64,000 nucleotides of DNA from an uncultured delta proteobacterium (GCA_963843145.1 CAWJJC010000017.1:171594-235593), one strand, 5' to 3'; shown: positions 1 through 9,549, numbered from the stretch's first letter. The notes: generated by a model not told the origin, from the letters alone. Numbers and translations are program-made.

Positions 1-399
1 AAAGCATCCAACCTAAAAACTCGGGGTTACCACATTGGGATTTGGGCGAAGCACCTGAATGAAGTTGGAAACAGTCATGCCGGGTAAGTCTTCGTGATAA
101 AACCAATACGACCCACCGGCTGGTCTGGTCCGCCGCCTGATCGCTCTACCAGCAGAGTCACCTTTCTGAAGGCCAAAAGTTTTTGCCTTTTCGGGCGTGA
201 AGTAGCGAGTGGCTATATTGCTGAAGTCGAGCGCGCCGCTATTGGTGAAGTTGGTTGAACGTAGAACGGAGACGGCATATCTCACCTTCATCTGCGCCCC
301 AATCTCCCGAAAACTGCTTCTCCAAAAGCGTTCGAAGCGGTTTTGGCCGCCAGTCAGCCGGAATATCGCCAATAATGGTGTCGTGCGATGGGTCAGCAT
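1..399 (-). CDS. hsdS: Type I restriction-modification specificity subunit, N-terminal part (frameshifted, runs off window)
   Basis: Starts overlapping the hsdM stop; TRD-like segments (GDWG...VSVLRSTNFT...LQKGD...SNFIQVLRPN) are spread over shifted frames. Confidence 0.75.
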
Positions 400-2590
400 T
401 GAGAGGCCTCCATTTGAGCTGAGGCCATTTCCTTAAGAATATTTCTGCAATGCTTCCTGCGCTTTACTGGCTGCGCTTGCGGCTGTATTACGAGATTTGT
501 CAATGCCTCATCCAACGGCACCACCTTCTCCGGCTCAAAGGTGTCCACATACCGCGGCAGATTGAGGTTGAATTCGTTCTCCTCGATCTCGGCCTTGTCC
601 ACCACGGCGAAGTAGCGGCGCGCCTCGTCTGGGTCGGCGAAGATACGGCCCAGATCGGCGGCGGCTTCCCGCAGGTGGGCGATCTCCCGCTCGGCAGCCA
701 TTTTTATCTCCTGCTCGCGGCCGTCGCGCTCCTCCTGGAGTTTTTTCAGCTCCTTCACGGCCCTGTTCACCTGCTTAGTGCGCTCCTTGAGGGCGGCGAT
801 GAGCTTCTTGCGGGCATCTTCGAAGGCCTTTTTCGGTTGGACGAGCTTAGCTTTCAGCGCCGACTTCTCTCTGCGTCCGGCGGCGTTGATCTCGGCCTGC
901 ACCTGATCCAGCTCAGCTTTGAGGGGAAATAACGGATGAAAGTAGGGGTGTTCGGGGCTAATGGCCTCGTCAACCGCCTTCACCTTCATATCCAGCGCAT
1001 CGAGGGTGGTCTGTTCTTCCTCCAGTCTCGCCAGCGGGGCCAGCACTGGGCCGAAGGCGTCTTCAATATCTGCCAGGCGCTCGTCGCGCTGTCCCTCCAC
1101 CTCGCGGATCAGATGCGCCTCGTGTTCGGCGACCAGCACCTTGGCCTTGTCGAGATCCCCGAAGGCGTGCCAGGGGACCAGGATGCGCATCAGGTCCGAG
1201 GGGCGCAGCAGGTTCTGCGGGTTAGTCTTCTGAAAGTGGCGCGAGGCCCAGATCATCAGGGTCTTGCCCTTGCGCTCTTCAGGTTTATTTTTATTGAACA
1301 GCAGCAGGCAGGCGGGCACGCCGTTGCCGTAGAAGAGCTTGGAGGGGAGCACCACGATGCATTCGATAAGGTCAGCCTCCACGAAGCCGCGCCGGATCAG
1401 ATACTCGGCATCGGCCTTCTGGTTCTGGCCGTCCTCCTCCTCGGTCTGTTCGGGCTGGCCGCGGAACAGCACTCCCTGGGACATGACCACCATGCCCTTG
1501 CCGGATTCGCCTGTTTCCGGGTTGAATTCCTTGAGCGACGCGATGATCTGCAGCAGCCAGGCCCAGTCGCCATTGGAGGTGGGCGGCAGGCCGAAGGACA
1601 TGCGGCCGAATTTGTCGCCGGCGGCCACGGTATCGTGTCCCCAGTCCTCCAGCGAGAAGGGAGGATTCATGATGATGCGGTCGAACTGTTTCAGCCGATG
1701 GGCTGCCGAGAGATGGCGTGGGTCGCGGAGGCTGTCACCCTGTTTGTGGTCCCACACCGGCACGCCGTGCAGGATCATGTTGATGCGCGAAATGTTGTAG
1801 GTGACGACGTTGGACTCCTGCCCGTGCAGGAAGAGCTGGCGTACGTCTCCCCCGTGTTTCTTCACAAAGCGGAGGCACTGCAGCAGCAGACCTCCGGAGC
1901 CGCTGGCCCAGTCGCAGATGCTCATGCCCGGCCTGGGCTCCAGCATTTCGGCCATGAGAAACCGACCTCGGCCGGAGTGTAGAATTCGCCGCTGGACTTG
2001 CCCGCCTTGCTGGCAAAGTTGCGGATCAGATACTCGTAGGCGTTGCCGAACAGGTCGTCGGAAACGTGAGCGCGGTCGAATTTCTGGCTGCCGAAGTGGT
2101 TGATCAGGTTGACCAGTTTGTCGCGTGGAAGTTCGTCCTGCTTGTTGAAATCGATCTTGCCGGTAAGGATGCCGTCGAAATTGTTCTGCCGGTGGGCGTT
2201 GGCCCGCTCGATGGCCAGCATGGCATCGTTCAGGGCCTGACCGAGCTGACCCTTGGCGGTGCGGGCGACCTTGTCCCAAGCGGCTTCTTCAGGTACGGTG
2301 AAATGATGCAATTCCTTTTGGCGGGCGAGATATTCGGCTTGCTCATCCTTCAATCCCGAAATAGTCAATTTCGAGGCGTGTAGACGCACATCTTCCTCAA
2401 AACAGTCGTTGATCCGCTTGTAGAAAAGCAGAGCAAACACGTAGCCGCGAAACTCGGAATGATCGGCGTTGCCGCGGAGGATGTCCGCGGCCTTGTCGAG
2501 ATAGTTCTCCAACTCGGCCTTGGTCATGCGCCGCGTCGGGCGAACGATAATCGGCCTATCGAGCGTGGCGAGGAGTTCGTTCAGATCCAT
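393..2590 (-). CDS. hsdM: Type I RM N6-adenine methyltransferase (frameshift near 1960 joins ORFs 1922..2716 and 393..2279)
   Basis: N-terminal AADILRG...[19 protein letters not shown] (motif I), NPPF (motif IV), [10 protein letters not shown]-terminus. Confidence 0.92.
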
Positions 2591-2603
2591 GAATCTTCCA
2601 TTC

Positions 2604-2816
2604 CTATAAATTGAGGCTCGGCCCGATGTGCTTTTCTTTACAGAGCTGATCGAACTGCCGTCGGGCCAGCTTCGAGGGCACGGTCTTGCCGTTCTCCCAG
2701 CGATTAACTGTGGCAAAACTCACCCCCAAGGCATGAGCGAGTTCCTCCTGAGACAACCCTAATTGTCGTCGGACATCTTTTACCAGTTCAGTAAAGTTCT
2801 CAGATGGTCGGTTCAT
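2604..2816 (-). CDS. XRE/Cro-family HTH regulator (controller-like) upstream of hsdM
   Basis: [26 protein letters not shown]. Confidence 0.85.
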
Positions 2817-3068
2817 TATTTTGAGTATCTTTCACTTGGGTTTAAGCAGGGCTACGCCGGGTACCTTTTTGCCATTTCATTCCATTGGAAAAATATAACA
2901 TATGCTATGCCTTCTGCAAGAAAAAAAGGGAATTTACAGATTTGTCGATGATGTCACATATGGATTTGCGTCAGAAAAGACGCCGGCTACCAGACAAGAC
3001 GCGGGGAGCGAGGGGAGAATTGTGTTAATTTTACGATTGGTTAGAAGCTGATGCGCATCATTCCAGGT

Positions 3069-3170
3069 TCAGAAGTGCTCAGTCGCAAAAGTTCGTCCTG
3101 GATGAGATTTCAGATAATGAAAAGTACTCAAGGGAGTGGCTTCCCACGGCGTGGTTCGAAACGCATCCTG
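3069..3170 (-). pseudogene. Remnant of a small GIY-YIG nuclease gene
   Basis: Minus-strand YLKSHPGRTFATEHF* resembles the usual C-terminus (YLKSxSGRAFAKKHF); preceded by a GCCACGGCATAGCC...GGCGAAGCCGGG palindromic repeat. Confidence 0.5.
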
Positions 3171-3410
3171 GTGTTTTTGTGGAAAAGATGCCCGGCTTCG
3201 CCCGATGGGCTATGCCGTGGCAGTCTTTGTCCTCCACAGCGTTCCGAACGAAGCCAGTGGGGCGATGTCCATCACATTCTCGGAAAATCATGCCGGAATA
3301 ATTACGTTTTTCAATAAATGTTTTTCAACGATACCCTCAAAAATACCCCCCATATAGCAACCGCCGATCCGCAAATTAAACATTCTGAAATTTTAATAAT
3401 ATAGACACAA

Positions 3411-3435
3411 AAAAGGGACGGTAGAAACCGTCCCC
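3411..3435 (-). terminator. Intrinsic terminator after the HicA-like gene
   Basis: Minus strand GGGACGGTTTCTACCGTCCC hairpin followed by a T run. Confidence 0.6.
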
Positions 3436-3463
3436 AGAGGGTTGCATATTTTAATTAAAAATC

Positions 3464-3787
3464 TCACCTTTGCGAATTTAGATCCGAAACATCTCTTTCT
3501 TTTAGTTTTTTATAATATTCGGGTCCAGTAAGACTACAATCAACTAATTCATTAAAATCGTTATCTTCCAACATTAACGCCTCCGCAATCCATTTGCTTT
3601 TGGAGGATCTCATTATTCTATCGTGTTCATTCGGAATCTTTACCTTTGTGATTAGAACTCCATCGATGTAAATATACCCTTTTTCATGGTCATTTCTACC
3701 TCGTAAAATTATTGGTTGAACTTTTTTCTTGATGCTGTGCCTTATTTCCTTCTCGGTAAAATTCTTAATTGCCACTTTTTTTGACAA
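3464..3787 (-). CDS. HicA-like toxin (probable GTG start at 3775)
   Basis: RGRNDH (catalytic His position), beta-strands YIYIDGVLITKVKIP, C-terminal ALMLEDNDFNELVDCSLT..Y..L; overlaps the upstream gene. Confidence 0.65.
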   Translation of the reverse strand: MSKKVAIKNFTEKEIRHSIKKKVQPIILRGRNDHEKGYIYIDGVLITKVKIPNEHDRIMRSSKSKWIAEALMLEDNDFNELVDCSLTGPEYYKKLKERDVSDLNSQR

Positions 3788-4253
3788 GTGAACAGAGGAT
3801 TTTTAACCAGGCACGTGGTTTTCCCCCCAATTTTTTTTTGGGGATGGATTGCAAATACTCATACAAGTCGAGTAATTCACCTTCCAAATCGGTCAAAGCT
3901 GAAATTTCATCGCTACCTTCGCCATAAAGTTCCAAGTCGGCTCTAATAGCGAGGACCTCGTCTTTGTACCTTTCAACTGTTGCTTCAATCAGTGTTTTTG
4001 CAGCATATCGCTTGTCAATGAAATCGCAAATAAATGCTTCCATTGAAACAGGTTCATCCAATGCGTCAATCGTTGAGCGGTCCCCTAGGGGGTGAAGGTA
4101 CTTTAAAATGTTCTCAACCCCGGACGTGCCGGTTTGCGGCCTTACCCTAGTGGAAGTAACGGTCGCTGTAAAAGGATGATAATCGATTAGAAATTGATAA
4201 GCTCCCCGGGTATCGCAAGATGGAATTGACTGCCAATCCTCAACGTTTTTCAT
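3765..4253 (-). CDS. HicB-like antitoxin with ~85-aa N-terminal extension
   Basis: C-terminal half IEATVERYKDEVLAIRADLELYGEGSDEISALTDLEGELLDLYEYL fits the HicB partial RNase H fold. Confidence 0.65.
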   Translation of the reverse strand: MKNVEDWQSIPSCDTRGAYQFLIDYHPFTATVTSTRVRPQTGTSGVENILKYLHPLGDRSTIDALDEPVSMEAFICDFIDKRYAAKTLIEATVERYKDEVLAIRADLELYGEGSDEISALTDLEGELLDLYEYLQSIPKKKLGGKPRAWLKILCSLVKKSGN

Positions 4254-4632
4254 GACTTATCTTTTCTTTCTTGTCGATGATTTTATCCAACTTCTTTATT
4301 CTATCATCGAGCCAATTCCTCAGTATTTTGGCGGTTTCTAAGTTCATCACGATACCGGCTTCGATTTCACGGACAATACCTTGCTTTCCTACGCGCTTTA
4401 GCTCTTTTCCCAATCGTCCTTCGGGACCAACTTCATGTTCAATTATTTGAGGAGTAACTTGCCTTTGAAGGAAAAGATCCATATAAATCATTAAGTTGGG
4501 TGTTACCCCACCGAAAATGCCGTCCACATAATAACTCCGGTAGCCGGCGGTTTTAATGTAGTTAACATCAACAGTTTTTGGAGGACTTTGAACGTCCACT
4601 CTGGCATTTTCTTTTTTCTTGGAAGAAGTCAT
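4240..4632 (-). CDS. Hypothetical protein, DUF3467-like
   Basis: YRSYYVDGIFGGVTP...IYMDLF...REIEAGIVMNLETAKILRNWLDDRI pattern; first gene of a coupled three-gene operon. Confidence 0.55.
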   Translation of the reverse strand: MTSSKKKENARVDVQSPPKTVDVNYIKTAGYRSYYVDGIFGGVTPNLMIYMDLFLQRQVTPQIIEHEVGPEGRLGKELKRVGKQGIVREIEAGIVMNLETAKILRNWLDDRIKKLDKIIDKKEKISHEKR

Positions 4633-4831
4633 TGTTTACCTTGAAGTATATATTGAGTAATTCCAGATACCATATCTCAAAATAGCCGTCAACATTTTTT
4701 TGGGGTATTTTTCGGGCAGAATCATACCCTTACAATAGGCTAAGATGATGGCCCCCTCGGACAAAGGACAATAAAAAACCCGCTTTTTACTGCGGGTTAT
4801 GTCCTTCTTTGGTTTATGTTGGATTGCCTTC

Positions 4832-5182
4832 TGGTGGAGGCGGCGGGAGTCGAACCCGCGTCCGAAAATAGGTCACTTAGGCCTCTACATACTTGTCCTG
4901 GTTTTTATTTGTTCGCCGACCCGTTTTCCACCAGGCGGGAATTCCGGCCAGCTATCCTATTTAAAGTTTCACCTTTTCGGCAACAGGCAACCCGATCCGG
5001 CTATCCTGCTAATCGACACCTCTGGTCCCTCCGCAGGCTGAAAAACCGAGGTGTTAGCCTATTAAGCGGCTAAGGCGTAGTTGTAGTCGTCTGCGACTAT
5101 GTTTTCCTACCAAGTTTACGAGTTGATAGGAACTCGGTATGCCACCCAAGCTAAGTATCCCCGTCGAAACCGTTTCGCCCCC
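4832..5182 (-). ncRNA. ssrA: tmRNA; tag peptide (A)ADDYNYALAA
   Basis: 5' GGGGGCGAAACGGTTTCGACGGGG, 3' GGTTCGACTCCCGCCGCCTCCACCA, tag ORF at ~5062-5094, adjacent to smpB. Confidence 0.97.
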
Positions 5183-5243
5183 TTTCTTATTATTATATTT
5201 TATTATAAGGTATTTTTATTAAAAAGTCAATGCCCCACCGGCG

Positions 5244-5702
5244 TTACTTTTTACTACGCAGGTTGCGCTGCATCTCCCGCTGCTCATCCCTTTCCCGGAT
5301 GGTTTCCCGCTTATCGTACAGTTTCTTCCCCTTGGCCAGAGCGACCTCCACCTTGGCCTTTCCACTCCGGAAATAAAGTTTCAGCGGGATGAGGGTCAAC
5401 CCCTTGCCCTGGATTTTCCCCATGATGCGCTTGATTTCATGGCGGTGCAGCAACAGCTTTCGGACCCGGGTGGGGTCCTGTTCGCCGGCCGGCGCATTTT
5501 CATAGGGACTGATATGGGCCTGGAGAAGCCAGATTTCCCCGCCCTTGATCTGGGCATAACTATCCTTCAGATTGGCCCGGCCCAGGCGTAAAGACTTCAC
5601 TTCCGGCCCGCTCAAAGCCAATCCCGCCTCCAGGGCCTCCAGGATCTGATAATCATGATGGGCCTTCCGATTTTGGCAGATAATCTTAATGGTTTCAGCC
5701 AT
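5244..5702 (-). CDS. smpB: SsrA-binding protein
   Basis: NRKAHHDY, EVKSLR, RKLLLH, KGKKLYDKR. Confidence 0.98.
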   Translation of the reverse strand: MAETIKIICQNRKAHHDYQILEALEAGLALSGPEVKSLRLGRANLKDSYAQIKGGEIWLLQAHISPYENAPAGEQDPTRVRKLLLHRHEIKRIMGKIQGKGLTLIPLKLYFRSGKAKVEVALAKGKKLYDKRETIRERDEQREMQRNLRSKK

Positions 5703-5758
5703 GGTCGTTCAGTCTTTTACATCTTTAAAATTTGAACCAAAAATTCAAAAATTTTTGG

Positions 5759-7546
5759 TTAGGAATAGAGTAAGTTGCCGTTCGGCCCGAATAAATCCGG
5801 GAATCGCTTGGCCATCTCATGGCGCACGTACCGGTTAATCTGCCCGACGGTGGTCAAGGTCAGCACTTCCTCGACAACCCGTCGGGATTCCTGGTAGGAG
5901 ATCAGGCGGATGACCTGCTTCACCCGGGGGATGGTAACGGGATTCATGCTCAACTCGTCCAATCCCAACCCCAGCAGGATGGGTATATAGAGCGGGTCGC
6001 CGGCCATCTCGCCGCACATGGCCACCGGGATATCCGCCCGATGACCGGCCTCGATGGTCTGATGAATCAGCCGCAAAATAGCCGGATGCAGGGGCTGATA
6101 CATGTGGGCCACGTGTTCGTTGACCCGGTCGATGGCCAGGGTGTATTGGATCAGATCATTCGTACCGATGCTGAAGAAATCGACCTCCCGGGCCAGCAGA
6201 TCGGCCGTAGCCACCGCTGAGGGTATTTCGATCATGATCCCGATCGGGATCTTGGGATCAAAGCGAATCCCCTCGGACCGCAACTCGGCCTCCACTTCCC
6301 GCAAGATGGCCTTGGCCTGCAATACTTCATCAACATCTGAAATCATGGGGAACAAAATTTTCAAACGGCCGTAGAGACTGGCCCGCAAAATGGCCCGAAG
6401 TTGGCGTTTGAAAATATGCACCTCCTTGAGGCAAAAACGTATGGCCCGAAGTCCCAAGGCCGGATTCATTTCCTCGGCCAATTCCATTTGAGAGACGAAC
6501 TTATCCCCCCCGATATCCAGGGTTCGGATGGTTACCGGGACCGGAGCGATCCGACGGGCCACCTCCTTAAAGTTTTCATATAGGGTTTCTTCCTTGGGCA
6601 GTTCTTTTTGGCTTAAATAGAAAAATTCGGTACGAAAAAGGCCGATTCCCTCCGCCCCGCTGTCCACCACCGCCCCCAACTCTTCCATGAATTCTATGTT
6701 GGCTCGGACCTTCACGGCGTGTCCGTCCAAGGTTACGGCCGGCAAATGACTGTAGCGGGCTATTTCCGCTCGAAATTTTTCGTAGTTTTCCTTTCTGTCC
6801 GAGTAATCCTGGACCGTTTTCTGATCCGGATTGATGATCACCCCTCCGTTGGTGCCGTCCAGGATGATCAGACTGCCGCTGCTGAATTCCTGAGTAATCC
6901 GCTCCAGACCCACCACCGCCGGTATTTCCAGGGATTGGGCAATAATCGCCGTGTGGGAAGTTTTCCCCCCCATATCGGTGGCAAACCCCAGGACCCGGTC
7001 CAGGCGCATCTGGCTGGTATCCGCCGGGGAGAGGTCATGGGCGACGATAATCACCGGTTCGCGGACCTCGGACAGGCTCTCCACCTTTTTCCCGGTTAAG
7101 TTCCGGAGGATCCGTTCGGAAACATCCTCCACGTCTTTGAACCGGGAGCGGATATACTCATCCTTGATCTTGGCAAAGGCCTCCTGGGCCTTTTCCACGG
7201 ACTTTTTTATGGCCCATTCGGCATTGATCTGTTCGGATCTAATCTGCTCCAGGGTATGATCAAAGAGCAGTTTATCCCGCAGGATCAGGCGATGGGAGTC
7301 GAAAATGCCGGCCTGGTCCTTGATTTCCTCCGGCATCTCCTCCTGGATCTGTCGTAGTTGTTCCTCCGCCCGATCCACGGCCTGACGGAAGCGCTCGATT
7401 TCCTCCACGACTTTATTATCGTCCAGGAGATACTGGTAGATCACCTTGACCCGACTGCGGTCAACCAGGTAGGCCCGCCCGATGGCTACTCCGGCCGAGG
7501 CCCCGATGCCCTTTAAAAACCGCATTGTATTCTTTTTTTGGGTCAT
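5759..7546 (-). CDS. ptsI: PEP-protein phosphotransferase (enzyme I)
   Basis: GGKTSHTAI phospho-His motif, GIGLFRTEF, SIGTNDLIQY. Confidence 0.97.
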   Translation of the reverse strand: MTQKKNTMRFLKGIGASAGVAIGRAYLVDRSRVKVIYQYLLDDNKVVEEIERFRQAVDRAEEQLRQIQEEMPEEIKDQAGIFDSHRLILRDKLLFDHTLEQIRSEQINAEWAIKKSVEKAQEAFAKIKDEYIRSRFKDVEDVSERILRNLTGKKVESLSEVREPVIIVAHDLSPADTSQMRLDRVLGFATDMGGKTSHTAIIAQSLEIPAVVGLERITQEFSSGSLIILDGTNGGVIINPDQKTVQDYSDRKENYEKFRAEIARYSHLPAVTLDGHAVKVRANIEFMEELGAVVDSGAEGIGLFRTEFFYLSQKELPKEETLYENFKEVARRIAPVPVTIRTLDIGGDKFVSQMELAEEMNPALGLRAIRFCLKEVHIFKRQLRAILRASLYGRLKILFPMISDVDEVLQAKAILREVEAELRSEGIRFDPKIPIGIMIEIPSAVATADLLAREVDFFSIGTNDLIQYTLAIDRVNEHVAHMYQPLHPAILRLIHQTIEAGHRADIPVAMCGEMAGDPLYIPILLGLGLDELSMNPVTIPRVKQVIRLISYQESRRVVEEVLTLTTVGQINRYVRHEMAKRFPDLFGPNGNLLYS

Positions 7547-7550
7547 GGTC

Positions 7551-7814
7551 TCAGTCTTCCCCAAACTTATCTTCAATGAGGGTCTCCACGGCCGCCATCA
7601 GCGCTTCCGCCTGTTCCCCTTCCGTGCGGACCGTAATCTTGGAACCAAAAGGACAGGCCAGGATCAATAAATTCAAAATGCTTTTCCCGTCCACTTCCTG
7701 GCCGTCAAAGCGGATAAAGAGGTCGGCCTGAAAAGGTTGGCTGATTTGAACCAATTTGGCTGAAGACCGGGCATGGAGCCCCAGTTGATTCTTGATGATA
7801 AATTGTCGTTCCAT
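7551..7814 (-). CDS. ptsH: Phosphocarrier HPr
   Basis: GLHAR and DGKSIL motifs. Confidence 0.95.
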   Translation of the reverse strand: MERQFIIKNQLGLHARSSAKLVQISQPFQADLFIRFDGQEVDGKSILNLLILACPFGSKITVRTEGEQAEALMAAVETLIEDKFGED

Positions 7815-7821
7815 GGCTTTA

Positions 7822-8532
7822 TCAAGGAGTTTTTCCTTCGGAAGGGGCCAGGATAAGCGTTATTTCCCCCAAAACTTCTTTGTCTCCGAGGCCTTGGAGC
7901 ACCTGGCTTACCGTTCCAGAAAGCAATTCTTCGTGTATTTTAGTCAACTCCCGGGTCAAAAAGACATCGATGTCTCCCAGCAAATCTCTTATTTCCGCCA
8001 ATAACTTCTTAATCCGGTAGGGGGATTCATAAAGCACTACCGTTCGGCCCTGGGCGGCCATTTCCTCGAGGATTCTCCTCCTCCGGCTCTTGCGTCTGGG
8101 CAGAAACCCCAAAAAAACGAAGGCCCCCCCTTCCATCCCCGAGACGCTAAGGGCGCAGGCCACAGCGGAGGGACCCGGAATAGGCACTACCGGGATCCCG
8201 GACTCCCGAGCCTGGCGGACCAATTCCTGACCGGGATCACTGATCCCCGGAGTACCCCCGTCGGTCACCAGGCCGACCTGCTCCCCTCGGAGCAAACGCT
8301 CTATCAGCACCCGGGATTTGCCCTGTTTATTGTACTCATGGTAGCTGGTCAGGGGCACATGGAGATCATACGCGGCCAGCAATTTCTGAGTTCTCCGGGT
8401 GTCTTCAGCGGCAATCAGGTTGGAGGTCTTCAGCACCTCCAGGGCCCTCAGGGTGATATCCTTAAGGTTTCCCAGGGGAGTCGCCACCACATAAAGGGTT
8501 CCCGGTTCGCCGGCTGCCCCGGTCCGTTCCAT
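7822..8532 (-). CDS. rsmI: 16S rRNA C1402 2'-O-methyltransferase
   Basis: LYVVATPLGNL, AAEDTR, GTPGISDPG, RELTKIHEE. Confidence 0.96.
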   Translation of the reverse strand: MERTGAAGEPGTLYVVATPLGNLKDITLRALEVLKTSNLIAAEDTRRTQKLLAAYDLHVPLTSYHEYNKQGKSRVLIERLLRGEQVGLVTDGGTPGISDPGQELVRQARESGIPVVPIPGPSAVACALSVSGMEGGAFVFLGFLPRRKSRRRRILEEMAAQGRTVVLYESPYRIKKLLAEIRDLLGDIDVFLTRELTKIHEELLSGTVSQVLQGLGDKEVLGEITLILAPSEGKTP

Positions 8533-8921
8533 TATCCTACCAGATCGAAGGCATTGCGAAACAATTCAATCCGCTCCCCCTGGCGCTCCAGATCGACCGC
8601 CACCACATCAAACCGGGCCGGGCGGTCCTTCCAGGCCTTCAAATTCAAATAATACAAGGCCAACCGCGACAGCTTCATTTGCTTCTTTCGATCTACCGCC
8701 CACTTGGCCGATCCAAAGGAGGTCGACTCTCGGGTCTTAACCTCCACGAAAACCAAGGTCTGACCTTCGCGGGCGACAATATCGATTTCTCCGATGGGGG
8801 TCTTGAAATTCCGCTCGATTATTTTATAGCCCTTCTCTTTCAATAGCGTACAGGCCAGCGCTTCTCCCCGAGCCCCCAGGTTAGGCAAAGCCCGGTCGGC
8901 AACTCCGGCGCTATTCTCCAT
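8532..8921 (-). CDS. yraN: YraN/UPF0102 family protein
   Basis: GEIDIVA, LVFVEVKTR, RFDVVAV. Confidence 0.93.
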   Translation of the reverse strand: MENSAGVADRALPNLGARGEALACTLLKEKGYKIIERNFKTPIGEIDIVAREGQTLVFVEVKTRESTSFGSAKWAVDRKKQMKLSRLALYYLNLKAWKDRPARFDVVAVDLERQGERIELFRNAFDLVG

Positions 8922-9549
8922 CGCGGGCCACCCCCCTGAAGCTCCGCCGATGAAGGGGGCAAGGGCCGTAGCGACGCAAAGCCTCCAGGTGTTCCCGCGT
9001 CCCATACCCCTTGTTGCCGGGAAAATTATATTCAGGGAAGCGGATATGGCAGGATTCCATCATCTTGTCCCGAATGACTTTGGCCACGATGGAGGCCGCC
9101 CCGATCGTCAGGCTGCGGGCATCTCCCCGGATCAGGCACTGTTGGGGGACCGCAAGATCAAGCGCCCGGTTACCGTCCACCAGCAGAAGGTCCGGAGCAA
9201 TCGGCAACCGCAGGACGGCCGTTTTCATGGCCTTCAAGGCCGCTTGAAGAATATTGATCCGATCCACCTCTCCGGCATCCACGGACCCTAACCCAATGGC
9301 CAGGGCCTTTTCCCGGATGAGGGGGAAAAGGGCTTCCCTTTGTTTGGCCGTTAATTTTTTGGAATCGGTGATACCCGGGATGAGCACCGCAGTGGGGAAG
9401 ATCACCGCGGCGGCAAGAACCGGTCCGGCCAACGGTCCCCGGCCGACTTCATCTACACCGGCAATACATAGCGATTCGAGGGATCGAAGGGAAAACTCAT
9501 AATAGACTGGGGCGCTCTGTCGGTTTGCTCGACGGCCCATTTGATTCAA
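8911..9549 (-). CDS. rnhB: Ribonuclease HII
   Basis: GVDEVGRGPLAGPV, DSKKL, AASIVAKV, HRRSF. Confidence 0.96.
   Translation of the reverse strand: MNQMGRRANRQSAPVYYEFSLRSLESLCIAGVDEVGRGPLAGPVLAAAVIFPTAVLIPGITDSKKLTAKQREALFPLIREKALAIGLGSVDAGEVDRINILQAALKAMKTAVLRLPIAPDLLLVDGNRALDLAVPQQCLIRGDARSLTIGAASIVAKVIRDKMMESCHIRFPEYNFPGNKGYGTREHLEALRRYGPCPLHRRSFRGVARDGE

Follow-up and report, generated by a model that had tools for sequence, protein, structure and literature searches.

Introduction

To our knowledge, only a few toxin–antitoxin (TA) systems are tripartite. In some of them, such as omega-epsilon-zeta and PaaR-PaaA-ParE, regulation is entrusted to a separate protein, and it is the first gene that supplies repression. 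In the best-studied type, the toxin–antitoxin–chaperone (TAC) systems (PMC5105189, PMC6377645, bioRxiv 10.1101/2024.02.24.581848), a SecB-like chaperone accompanies an antitoxin that carries a C-terminal chaperone-addiction (ChAD) extension, and this third protein senses phage. Among two-gene modules, Class 8 hicBA is the closest to the system discussed here. In the available sections of its description (Gerdes, mBio 2024, PMC10865869), HicA has about 95 aa, with an alpha-beta-beta-beta-alpha core followed by two extra small C-terminal helices, and HicB (331-356 codons) has three domains, with the HicB fold at the C-terminus. According to the same source, no DNA-binding domain is recognisable in the HicA and HicB proteins of Classes 7 and 8, whose regulation is unexplained. 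Here we describe a cassette of three overlapping genes, called A, B and C from first to last, that lies beside the tmRNA gene in a 64,000-nucleotide stretch of DNA from an uncultured delta proteobacterium (GCA_963843145.1, CAWJJC010000017.1:171594-235593; hereafter, the window), and in which a DUF3467-like gene precedes genes for a HicB-like protein and for a protein predicted to have the HicA fold.

The cassette shares traits with each of these systems. Its order (first gene, antitoxin, toxin) is that of omega-epsilon-zeta and PaaR-PaaA-ParE, and its antitoxin also lacks a DNA-binding domain; by contrast, A contains no recognisable ribbon-helix-helix or helix-turn-helix domain. As in TAC, there are three genes, the accessory family has housekeeping relatives and is linked to several unrelated TA families, and the antitoxins bear an added, poorly conserved extension. 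However, the accessory protein is not detectably SecB-like, the extension is N-terminal instead of a C-terminal ChAD, and the accessory gene comes first and not last. With Class 8, as far as the available description goes, the cassette shares the form of HicA (in the model of C), the position of the antitoxin gene before that of the toxin, the C-terminal location of the HicB fold and the lack of a DNA-binding domain in both proteins, while it differs in its shorter antitoxin (162 aa), in the unstructured-looking extension of the latter and in its separate DUF3467-like first gene. The core of the cassette resembles Class 8 hicBA. No description of a form with three genes, one of them DUF3467-like, was found in the printed text that was accessible. 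A full-text literature search returned no link between the DUF3467-like family and TA systems, although the supplements of PMC10865869, which fell outside its scope, could list such loci, and it returned no account of the function of the DUF3467 family.

A conserved three-gene variant of the HicBA module

The open reading frames (ORFs) called in the window place the three genes head to tail on the minus strand, in the order A-B-C (Table 1). B begins with an ATG (4253) placed 14 nt ahead of the last base of the A stop codon (4240), and the start of C overlaps the stop codon of B (3765-3767) by 11 nt if the GTG is used and by 23 nt if the TTG is used. The start of the C homologues corresponds to GTG 3775 of the window, which makes the 103-aa product the likelier one. 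A single terminator-like hairpin follows C, and the G+C content falls to 33-44% across 3300-4800, against approximately 55-62% in both flanks. Comparison by blastn of window positions 1-9000 with a genome of the same genus (G336:C29:20700-29100) indicated that, in the latter, the 3′ end of the tmRNA gene directly abuts a homologue (79% identity) of window 3136-3255, and therefore that the intervening segment of the window is an insertion that holds only the three genes. Beyond it, window 517-2942 is conserved in G336 at 92%. These results agree with the initial annotation, which had described three low-G+C genes with overlapping stops and starts, a single terminator and an island at tmRNA without other cargo.

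The insertion contains no integrase, and no direct repeat of the tmRNA 3′ end of at least 14 nt was found. By eye, the final 10-12 bases of tmRNA can be recognised again, in degenerate form, at the distal junction (window 3251-3262 versus 4831-4842), which fits site-specific integration, although the insertion lacks an integrase.

The survey of gene neighbourhoods that the initial annotation had proposed uncovered the A-B-C order in 13 distinct loci from several phyla, with genes that overlap or abut (the window, L001, L004, L006, L008, L009, L010, L011, which is the same as L017, L014, L016, L021, L042, which is the same as L080, and L085). These loci came from three sources. A scan of metagenomes with a C pattern yielded 15 loci, eight of which are A-B-C (L001, L004, L006, L008-L011, L014), while in four others B-C stands behind a different, tightly coupled first gene (L005, L007, L012, L013); of the remainder, L002 and L003 are cut upstream and L015 is a degraded fragment. 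A scan of species genomes for A yielded ten loci: in three of them A is followed by B-C (L016 and L017, from Omnitrophota MAGs, and L021, from a Planctomycetota MAG), in one by a 90-aa protein and PemK/MazF (L018) and in six by other two-gene sets. Finally, in 401 genomes of the phylum of the window, the A profile matched 35 and the C profile 14, which added two A-B-C loci (L042, L085), two loci where A accompanies MazF (L043, L045) and two where it precedes a pair already present in L023 (L040, L041). The distribution is patchy, since, among 13 genomes of the same family, none has A and only one has C. Altogether, the cassette is a mobile and conserved three-gene variant of the HicBA module, and a tiny one (three genes in 1.6 kb).

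Table 1. Coordinates of the cassette and its surroundings in the window and of related loci elsewhere (the latter numbered within each locus)
Feature	Position	Strand	Description
Gene A	4240..4632	-	130 aa; long DUF3467-like protein with Lys-rich N-terminal tail, five beta-strands and long C-terminal helix
Gene B	3765..4253	-	162-aa ORF
Gene B, residues 1-74	4032..4253	-	Non-conserved N-terminal extension, Ser/Thr-rich (19%)
Gene B, residues 75-162	3765..4031	-	Predicted HicB-like antitoxin domain, conserved, and conserved C-terminal helix (LG..P..W motif)
Gene C	3464..3787	-	Putative toxin with predicted long-form HicA fold; 107 aa (TTG 3787) or 103 aa (GTG 3775); two extra C-terminal helices
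Intrinsic-terminator-like hairpin after gene C	3414..3435	-	9-pair stem, 6 GC, T-run
Terminator-like hairpin after tmRNA	4777..4798	-	Terminator scan
tmRNA gene	4832..5182	-	ARAGORN; 99% identical in G336; cassette sits at its 3′ end
Insertion (A-B-C cassette alone)	3256..4830	.	1,575 bp; blastn versus G336 and G+C drop
B-C with another first gene, L012	5-1165		DUF6941, E 2e-17
B-C with another first gene, L090	517-1608		DUF6941; gene similar-looking to that of L012
B-C with another first gene, L013	353-2067		ClpP-like SDH protease
B-C with another first gene, L005	872-2362		234-aa protein without assigned family
B-C with another first gene, L007			99-aa protein
B-C with another first gene, L083			Short 106-aa protein
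A + PemK/MazF, L018	3995-4976		MazF E 1e-19
A + PemK/MazF, L043	873-1854		MazF E 7e-10
A + PemK/MazF, L045	831-1848		MazF E 1.5e-15
A + other conserved pair, L023	4001-5449		
A + other conserved pair, L040	1456-2844		
A + other conserved pair, L041	1444-2853		

The product of gene C

The protein encoded by C has no Pfam match at E<=1, no NCBIfam match and no PDB sequence match. Its family is small, with nine clusters in a set of 5.8 billion proteins, and a search of 1.84 billion proteins with its profile gathered 137 representatives at E<=1e-3. An AlphaFold model built from a 25-sequence alignment (pLDDT 88, pTM 0.81) presents a helix, three strands and a helix (H12-23, E26-29, E35-41, E44-51, H61-70), followed by two more helices. 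When this model was aligned, without pre-filtering, to 48,161 PDB representatives, the five best chains were all HicA: 1whz (Z 6.6, rmsd 2.6, 70 of 70 residues aligned), which we take to be a HicA-family protein although its PDB title reads only "hypothetical protein", 6g26_E (Z 5.6, rmsd 2.2, 61/61 aligned), 4p78_D (Z 5.2), 5yrz_D (Z 4.5) and 6hpb_C (Z 3.2); the next row, at Z 3.1, is unrelated. The tool cautions that Z values of this size are middling, yet the matches are consistent and cover whole target chains, and the Foldseek list agrees on HicA. Sequence comparison offers a bridge, as 18 of the 137 representatives match PF07927 (HicA_toxin) at E<=0.01, two of them above the gathering score (27 bits). 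All 18 are more distant relatives of C, and no other family recurs. The C homologue of L042 has an E of 0.04 against PF07927.

In HicA proteins, the catalytic histidine is conserved and is found where the sheet begins. In the 25 C sequences, H34, G37, P52, N53 and H55 are invariant, and an hhalign alignment, not significant in itself, puts H34 of C opposite the conserved histidine of canonical HicAs. We conclude from its model that C has the HicA fold and presume it to be a divergent, long-form HicA and an RNase. The HicA-like toxin first proposed for this gene is sustained by the fold and by the relatives that match PF07927, although C itself has no Pfam match. In the genome of the window (G000), canonical HicAs are found at eight loci (contigs C4, C12, C17, C23, C27 and C28; L026-L036), and C is not among them.

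Another way of reading these results is that the operon is not a TA system, that is, that C is a dsRBD-like fold put to a non-toxic use in an operon with some other function. Although the failure of C to match the Pfam HicA model and the middling Z values (6.6 at most) are in line with it, we regard this as very improbable, given that the five top structural matches are all HicA toxins covered along their whole chains, that there is a sequence bridge to PF07927 and that the partner has a HicB-like domain. In addition, TA cassettes typically have genes of such sizes and overlaps, occur as patchily as this one and insert at sites such as tmRNA, and published Class 8 hicBA has the same form of HicA, as far as its available description (PMC10865869) goes.

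The putative antitoxin and its N-terminal extension

Only two close homologues of B with a similar length were found. When related loci were compared by tblastn, the gene preceding each C homologue proved to contain a conserved counterpart of the C-terminal ~85 residues of B, and an alignment of 18 B sequences contains nothing conserved before residue ~75 and a clear domain from there on, which ends in the LG..P..W helix. By hhalign, this domain aligns over B residues 89-133 (45 columns) with short canonical HicBs encoded in the genome of the window (65%, E 6e-5), and over B residues 82-160 (79 columns) with the C-terminal, HicB-fold domain of Class-8-like long HicBs of 353-361 aa (39%, E 3e-4). 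In other comparisons, PF12910 (PHD_like, an antitoxin family) is weakly matched by 10 of 18 B members, PF15919 does not match B of the window, and the best PDB profile match is 3k6q_A (E 0.23). These comparisons of profiles point to a HicB-like domain in the C-terminal region of B, as had been proposed at first, although the extension, measured against the profile of the conserved domain, has some 74 residues instead of the ~85 originally estimated. It is probably unfolded. The absence of a C-terminal DNA-binding domain was also borne out, as neither B nor any of 18 family members matches a DNA-binding family at E<=1, and B ends in its conserved helix right after the HicB-like domain; the extension is N-terminal and not C-terminal. 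As a separate observation, several of the canonical HicA loci of the same genome have short upstream HicBs (63-82 aa) that are also devoid of a DNA-binding domain.

The extension of B measures 45-83 residues in the 13 loci with A upstream, 46-75 in six loci with another first gene and 29-53 in six loci with no tightly linked first gene. Its length would thus follow the presence of a first gene, but, as the ranges overlap and the sequences are related, this is only a tendency in small samples and not a test.

The more distant C homologues of L089, L091 and L093 lie next to a single long HicB (353-361 aa) and share the Class 8 architecture, as far as the latter is described in the accessible text. 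The possibility that A is a split-off piece of such a long HicB was considered and rejected on the basis of their lack of similarity (hhalign 0.1%).

The first gene

Five homologues were found for A of the window. Only its residues 89-114 match DUF3467 (PF11950), and they score 12.6 bits (E 0.15), below the gathering score of 25. The same Pfam family is weakly matched by 7 of 22 A-family members (best E 8.5e-4) and is present on 31% of the members of the nearest named Atlas cluster. By its profiles, A appears to be a distant relative of DUF3467 and not a member by the Pfam rule; thus, the description of the first gene as a 130-aa DUF3467-like protein stands for its length and its distant likeness but falls below the threshold of the family. 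The AlphaFold model of A (pLDDT 81, pTM 0.53) comprises a disordered Lys-rich tail, a five-stranded meander and a 30-residue helix; the family is longer than DUF3467, with an inserted hairpin, and Lys-rich tails are found at both the N- and the C-terminus.

In searches with this model, Foldseek produced no match in the PDB at E<=0.001, and the best structural matches in the PDB, COMM domains (Z 5.0-5.5) and Pur-alpha/PC4 (Z 3.4-4.1), are all under the noise level of the tool. A single uncharacterised siphovirus protein is matched in BFVD (E 4e-6). No likeness of A to SecB was detected, in line with the non-SecB protein originally proposed: there is no SecB Pfam match for A or for 22 family members, no PDB sequence match, and no SecB chain among the best 50 PDB rows or the Foldseek matches listed. 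More generally, PDB sequence searches with the single A, B and C proteins and with their profiles returned nothing below E 0.2, NCBIfam returned nothing, and the PADLOC models matched none of 12 A, 10 B and 13 C-type proteins, save one chance-level DruD (E 0.006). The C protein of the window was aligned with PDC-M63A (E 0.011) and, as the only PHROGs match, with phrog_4676 (E 0.005). As to carriage by phages, IMG/VR contained one weak match to A and no match to C.

These features bear on the possibility that A is a separate DNA-binding autoregulator, with B-C being a HicBA pair of the usual kind except for the loss of the DNA-binding domain from its antitoxin. In that case, the extension of B may bind to A and act as a co-repressor, or may serve only as a degron or a linker. 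The gene order is the one found in omega-epsilon-zeta and PaaR-PaaA-ParE, neither B nor the middle proteins that link A to MazF (0/3, Pfam) have a DNA-binding domain, A is Lys-rich at both ends, and Pur-alpha and PC4 are among its fold matches. Such a role would also be in keeping with Class 7 and 8 HicA/HicB, which are without a recognisable DNA-binding domain and whose regulation is unexplained in the available text of PMC10865869. On the other hand, no DNA-binding family was detected in A, and its fold matches do not rise above the tool's stated noise level. The 144-nt gap upstream of A, in which a sigma-70 scan called no site, contains no inverted repeat besides the tmRNA terminator, and no palindrome is common to 17 upstream regions. 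Furthermore, many short HicBs of the same genome do without both a DNA-binding domain and a third gene, and relatives of A are found upstream of housekeeping genes. We consider regulation by A, which is no less simple a reading than the mechanism proposed below and its main rival, somewhat unlikely.

Members of the A family beyond HicBA

In at least three unrelated kinds of TA pair, all with an N-extended antitoxin that lacks a DNA-binding domain, the gene in first position belongs to the DUF3467-like family. Besides B-C, genes of this family directly precede, in three loci, a 90-99 aa protein without a Pfam domain and PemK/MazF and, in three other loci, another conserved pair formed by proteins of approximately 185-205 and 146-168 aa (Table 1). 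In this last pair, PDC-M32A, a candidate defence protein of PADLOC, is matched by the middle protein through its C-terminal domain (E ~1e-6), and the third protein has no family match. In all three types, no domain is detectable in the first 50-100 residues or so of the middle protein (some 60-100, by Pfam, in the MazF pairs and the other conserved pair), which is also devoid of a DNA-binding domain.

Not all the family is found in this context. TA-like pairs are present at 6 of the 29 A-family loci fetched in the phylum sample (L040-L043, L045, L058), and more distant A genes directly precede miaB-like radical-SAM genes in a single genus (g68; L055, L056, L059, L060, L062-L064), DUF3108 genes (L047, L049, L050) and NFACT-R genes (L067, L068). 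Such neighbours are possible clues to the basic activity of the family. In a tree of 51 A-family sequences, the TA-linked members are scattered, with at least two forced changes for the HicBA label and MazF-linked members in three places, and the TA-linked and the other members share the same core motif pattern.

Accordingly, one may ask whether A is a generic cellular activity, for instance one related to RNA or translation, that is only co-transcribed with the pair, either as a passenger or as a modulator of the substrate of an RNase toxin, and does not act on the antitoxin. Both toxin types identified behind A, HicA and MazF, belong to RNase families, and most A loci of the phylum sample stand outside TA pairs, beside miaB-like (tRNA modification), NFACT-R (RNA-binding), DUF3108 or unrelated genes. 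Nevertheless, this possibility seems distinctly unlikely in view of the tight overlap and the fixed first position of A in 13 A-B-C loci across phyla, of the recurrent link with N-extended middle proteins in three unrelated TA types and of the 1.6-kb insertion, which moved the three genes as a unit.

Proposed mechanism

The best explanation of these data, which we put forward tentatively and with a little less than even confidence, is that the locus is a horizontally acquired three-gene type II TA cassette in which A serves the antitoxin as its own accessory, by way of the extension of B. The initial annotation had proposed a mirror-image ("reverse TAC") arrangement, with a non-SecB protein that would bind or stabilise the extension and act as the sensor; of these parts, action by way of the extension is kept here, and the full picture of a chaperone and sensor is held to be unlikely. 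In this model, the C-terminal HicB-like domain of B would neutralise C by direct binding. A would be translated first from the shared message and would act via the variable N-terminal extension of B, holding or stabilising it in such a way that B would stay competent. If A were lost, titrated or outcompeted, B would fail and C would be freed. The toxicity of C, its neutralisation by B, the contact between A and B, the direction of the effect of A and the link with phages are parts of the model that we infer. Co-folding of two copies of A with residues 1-90 of B gave a score of 0.00 and a mark of 0.32, which, being obtained without controls and with an uncertain partner fold, are evidence neither for nor against it.

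Several observations weigh against this explanation. With regard to C, none of 25 close family members matches the Pfam HicA model, nor does C of the window, and hhalign between the C profile and the eight canonical HicAs of the same genome was not significant. With regard to A, the first gene is replaceable, as DUF6941, a ClpP-like protease, a 234-aa protein or proteins of 99-106 aa may take its place, and the more distant B-C pairs of six loci have no first gene at all. The 99-aa first gene of L007, which resembles A by eye, was considered as a relative of A, but found no support (hhalign 0.4%, no Pfam match). The wider A family (35/401 phylum genomes) is mostly outside TA contexts and, as its TA-linked members are scattered over the tree, the activity of A seems to be generic rather than TA-specific, and to have been taken up repeatedly by TA modules. 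The weak fold matches of A include nucleic-acid binders (Pur-alpha, PC4), its tails are Lys-rich and the antitoxins linked to it have no DNA-binding domain. Finally, the comparative data do no more than agree with a functional link of A to antitoxins that bear an N-terminal extension, and the contact between A and B would have to be deduced.

The antitoxin-accessory explanation may be extended by proposing that antitoxins have, in the long DUF3467-like proteins, a second class of dedicated holders or adaptors of a non-SecB kind, which would recognise unfolded N-terminal extensions grafted onto unrelated antitoxins (HicB-like, MazE-like and a third type), and whose titration, for example by a phage protein, would free the toxin. 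We believe this broader proposal to be unlikely as a whole. If it were true, the cassette would be a convergent, mirror-image counterpart of TAC, and the alternative first genes, such as those of DUF6941 and the ClpP-like protease, would encode triggers that can replace one another and that work on this extension too. In any case, either role of A, as an accessory or as a regulator, would be the first function for DUF3467-like proteins, and it would answer a question raised in the available text of PMC10865869, namely how Class 7 and 8 hicBA are controlled without a DNA-binding domain.

Neighbouring features

An XRE-type gene and a type I hsdM are found near the cassette, but they are common to G336 and lie outside the insertion. 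The XRE-type helix-turn-helix (HTH) gene (2604-2816) overlaps the start of hsdM, and hsdM itself (393-2716, minus strand) is split over two overlapping frames, one of which (1922-2716) encodes HsdM_N and the start of N6_Mtase and the other (393-2279) the remainder, owing either to a frameshift or to an error in sequencing. The stretch next to tmRNA in G336 is present once in the window (3136-3255) and twice in G336 (L077 7491-7569 and 7888-8006), with 73-79% identity, and it looks like a short repeated intergenic element.

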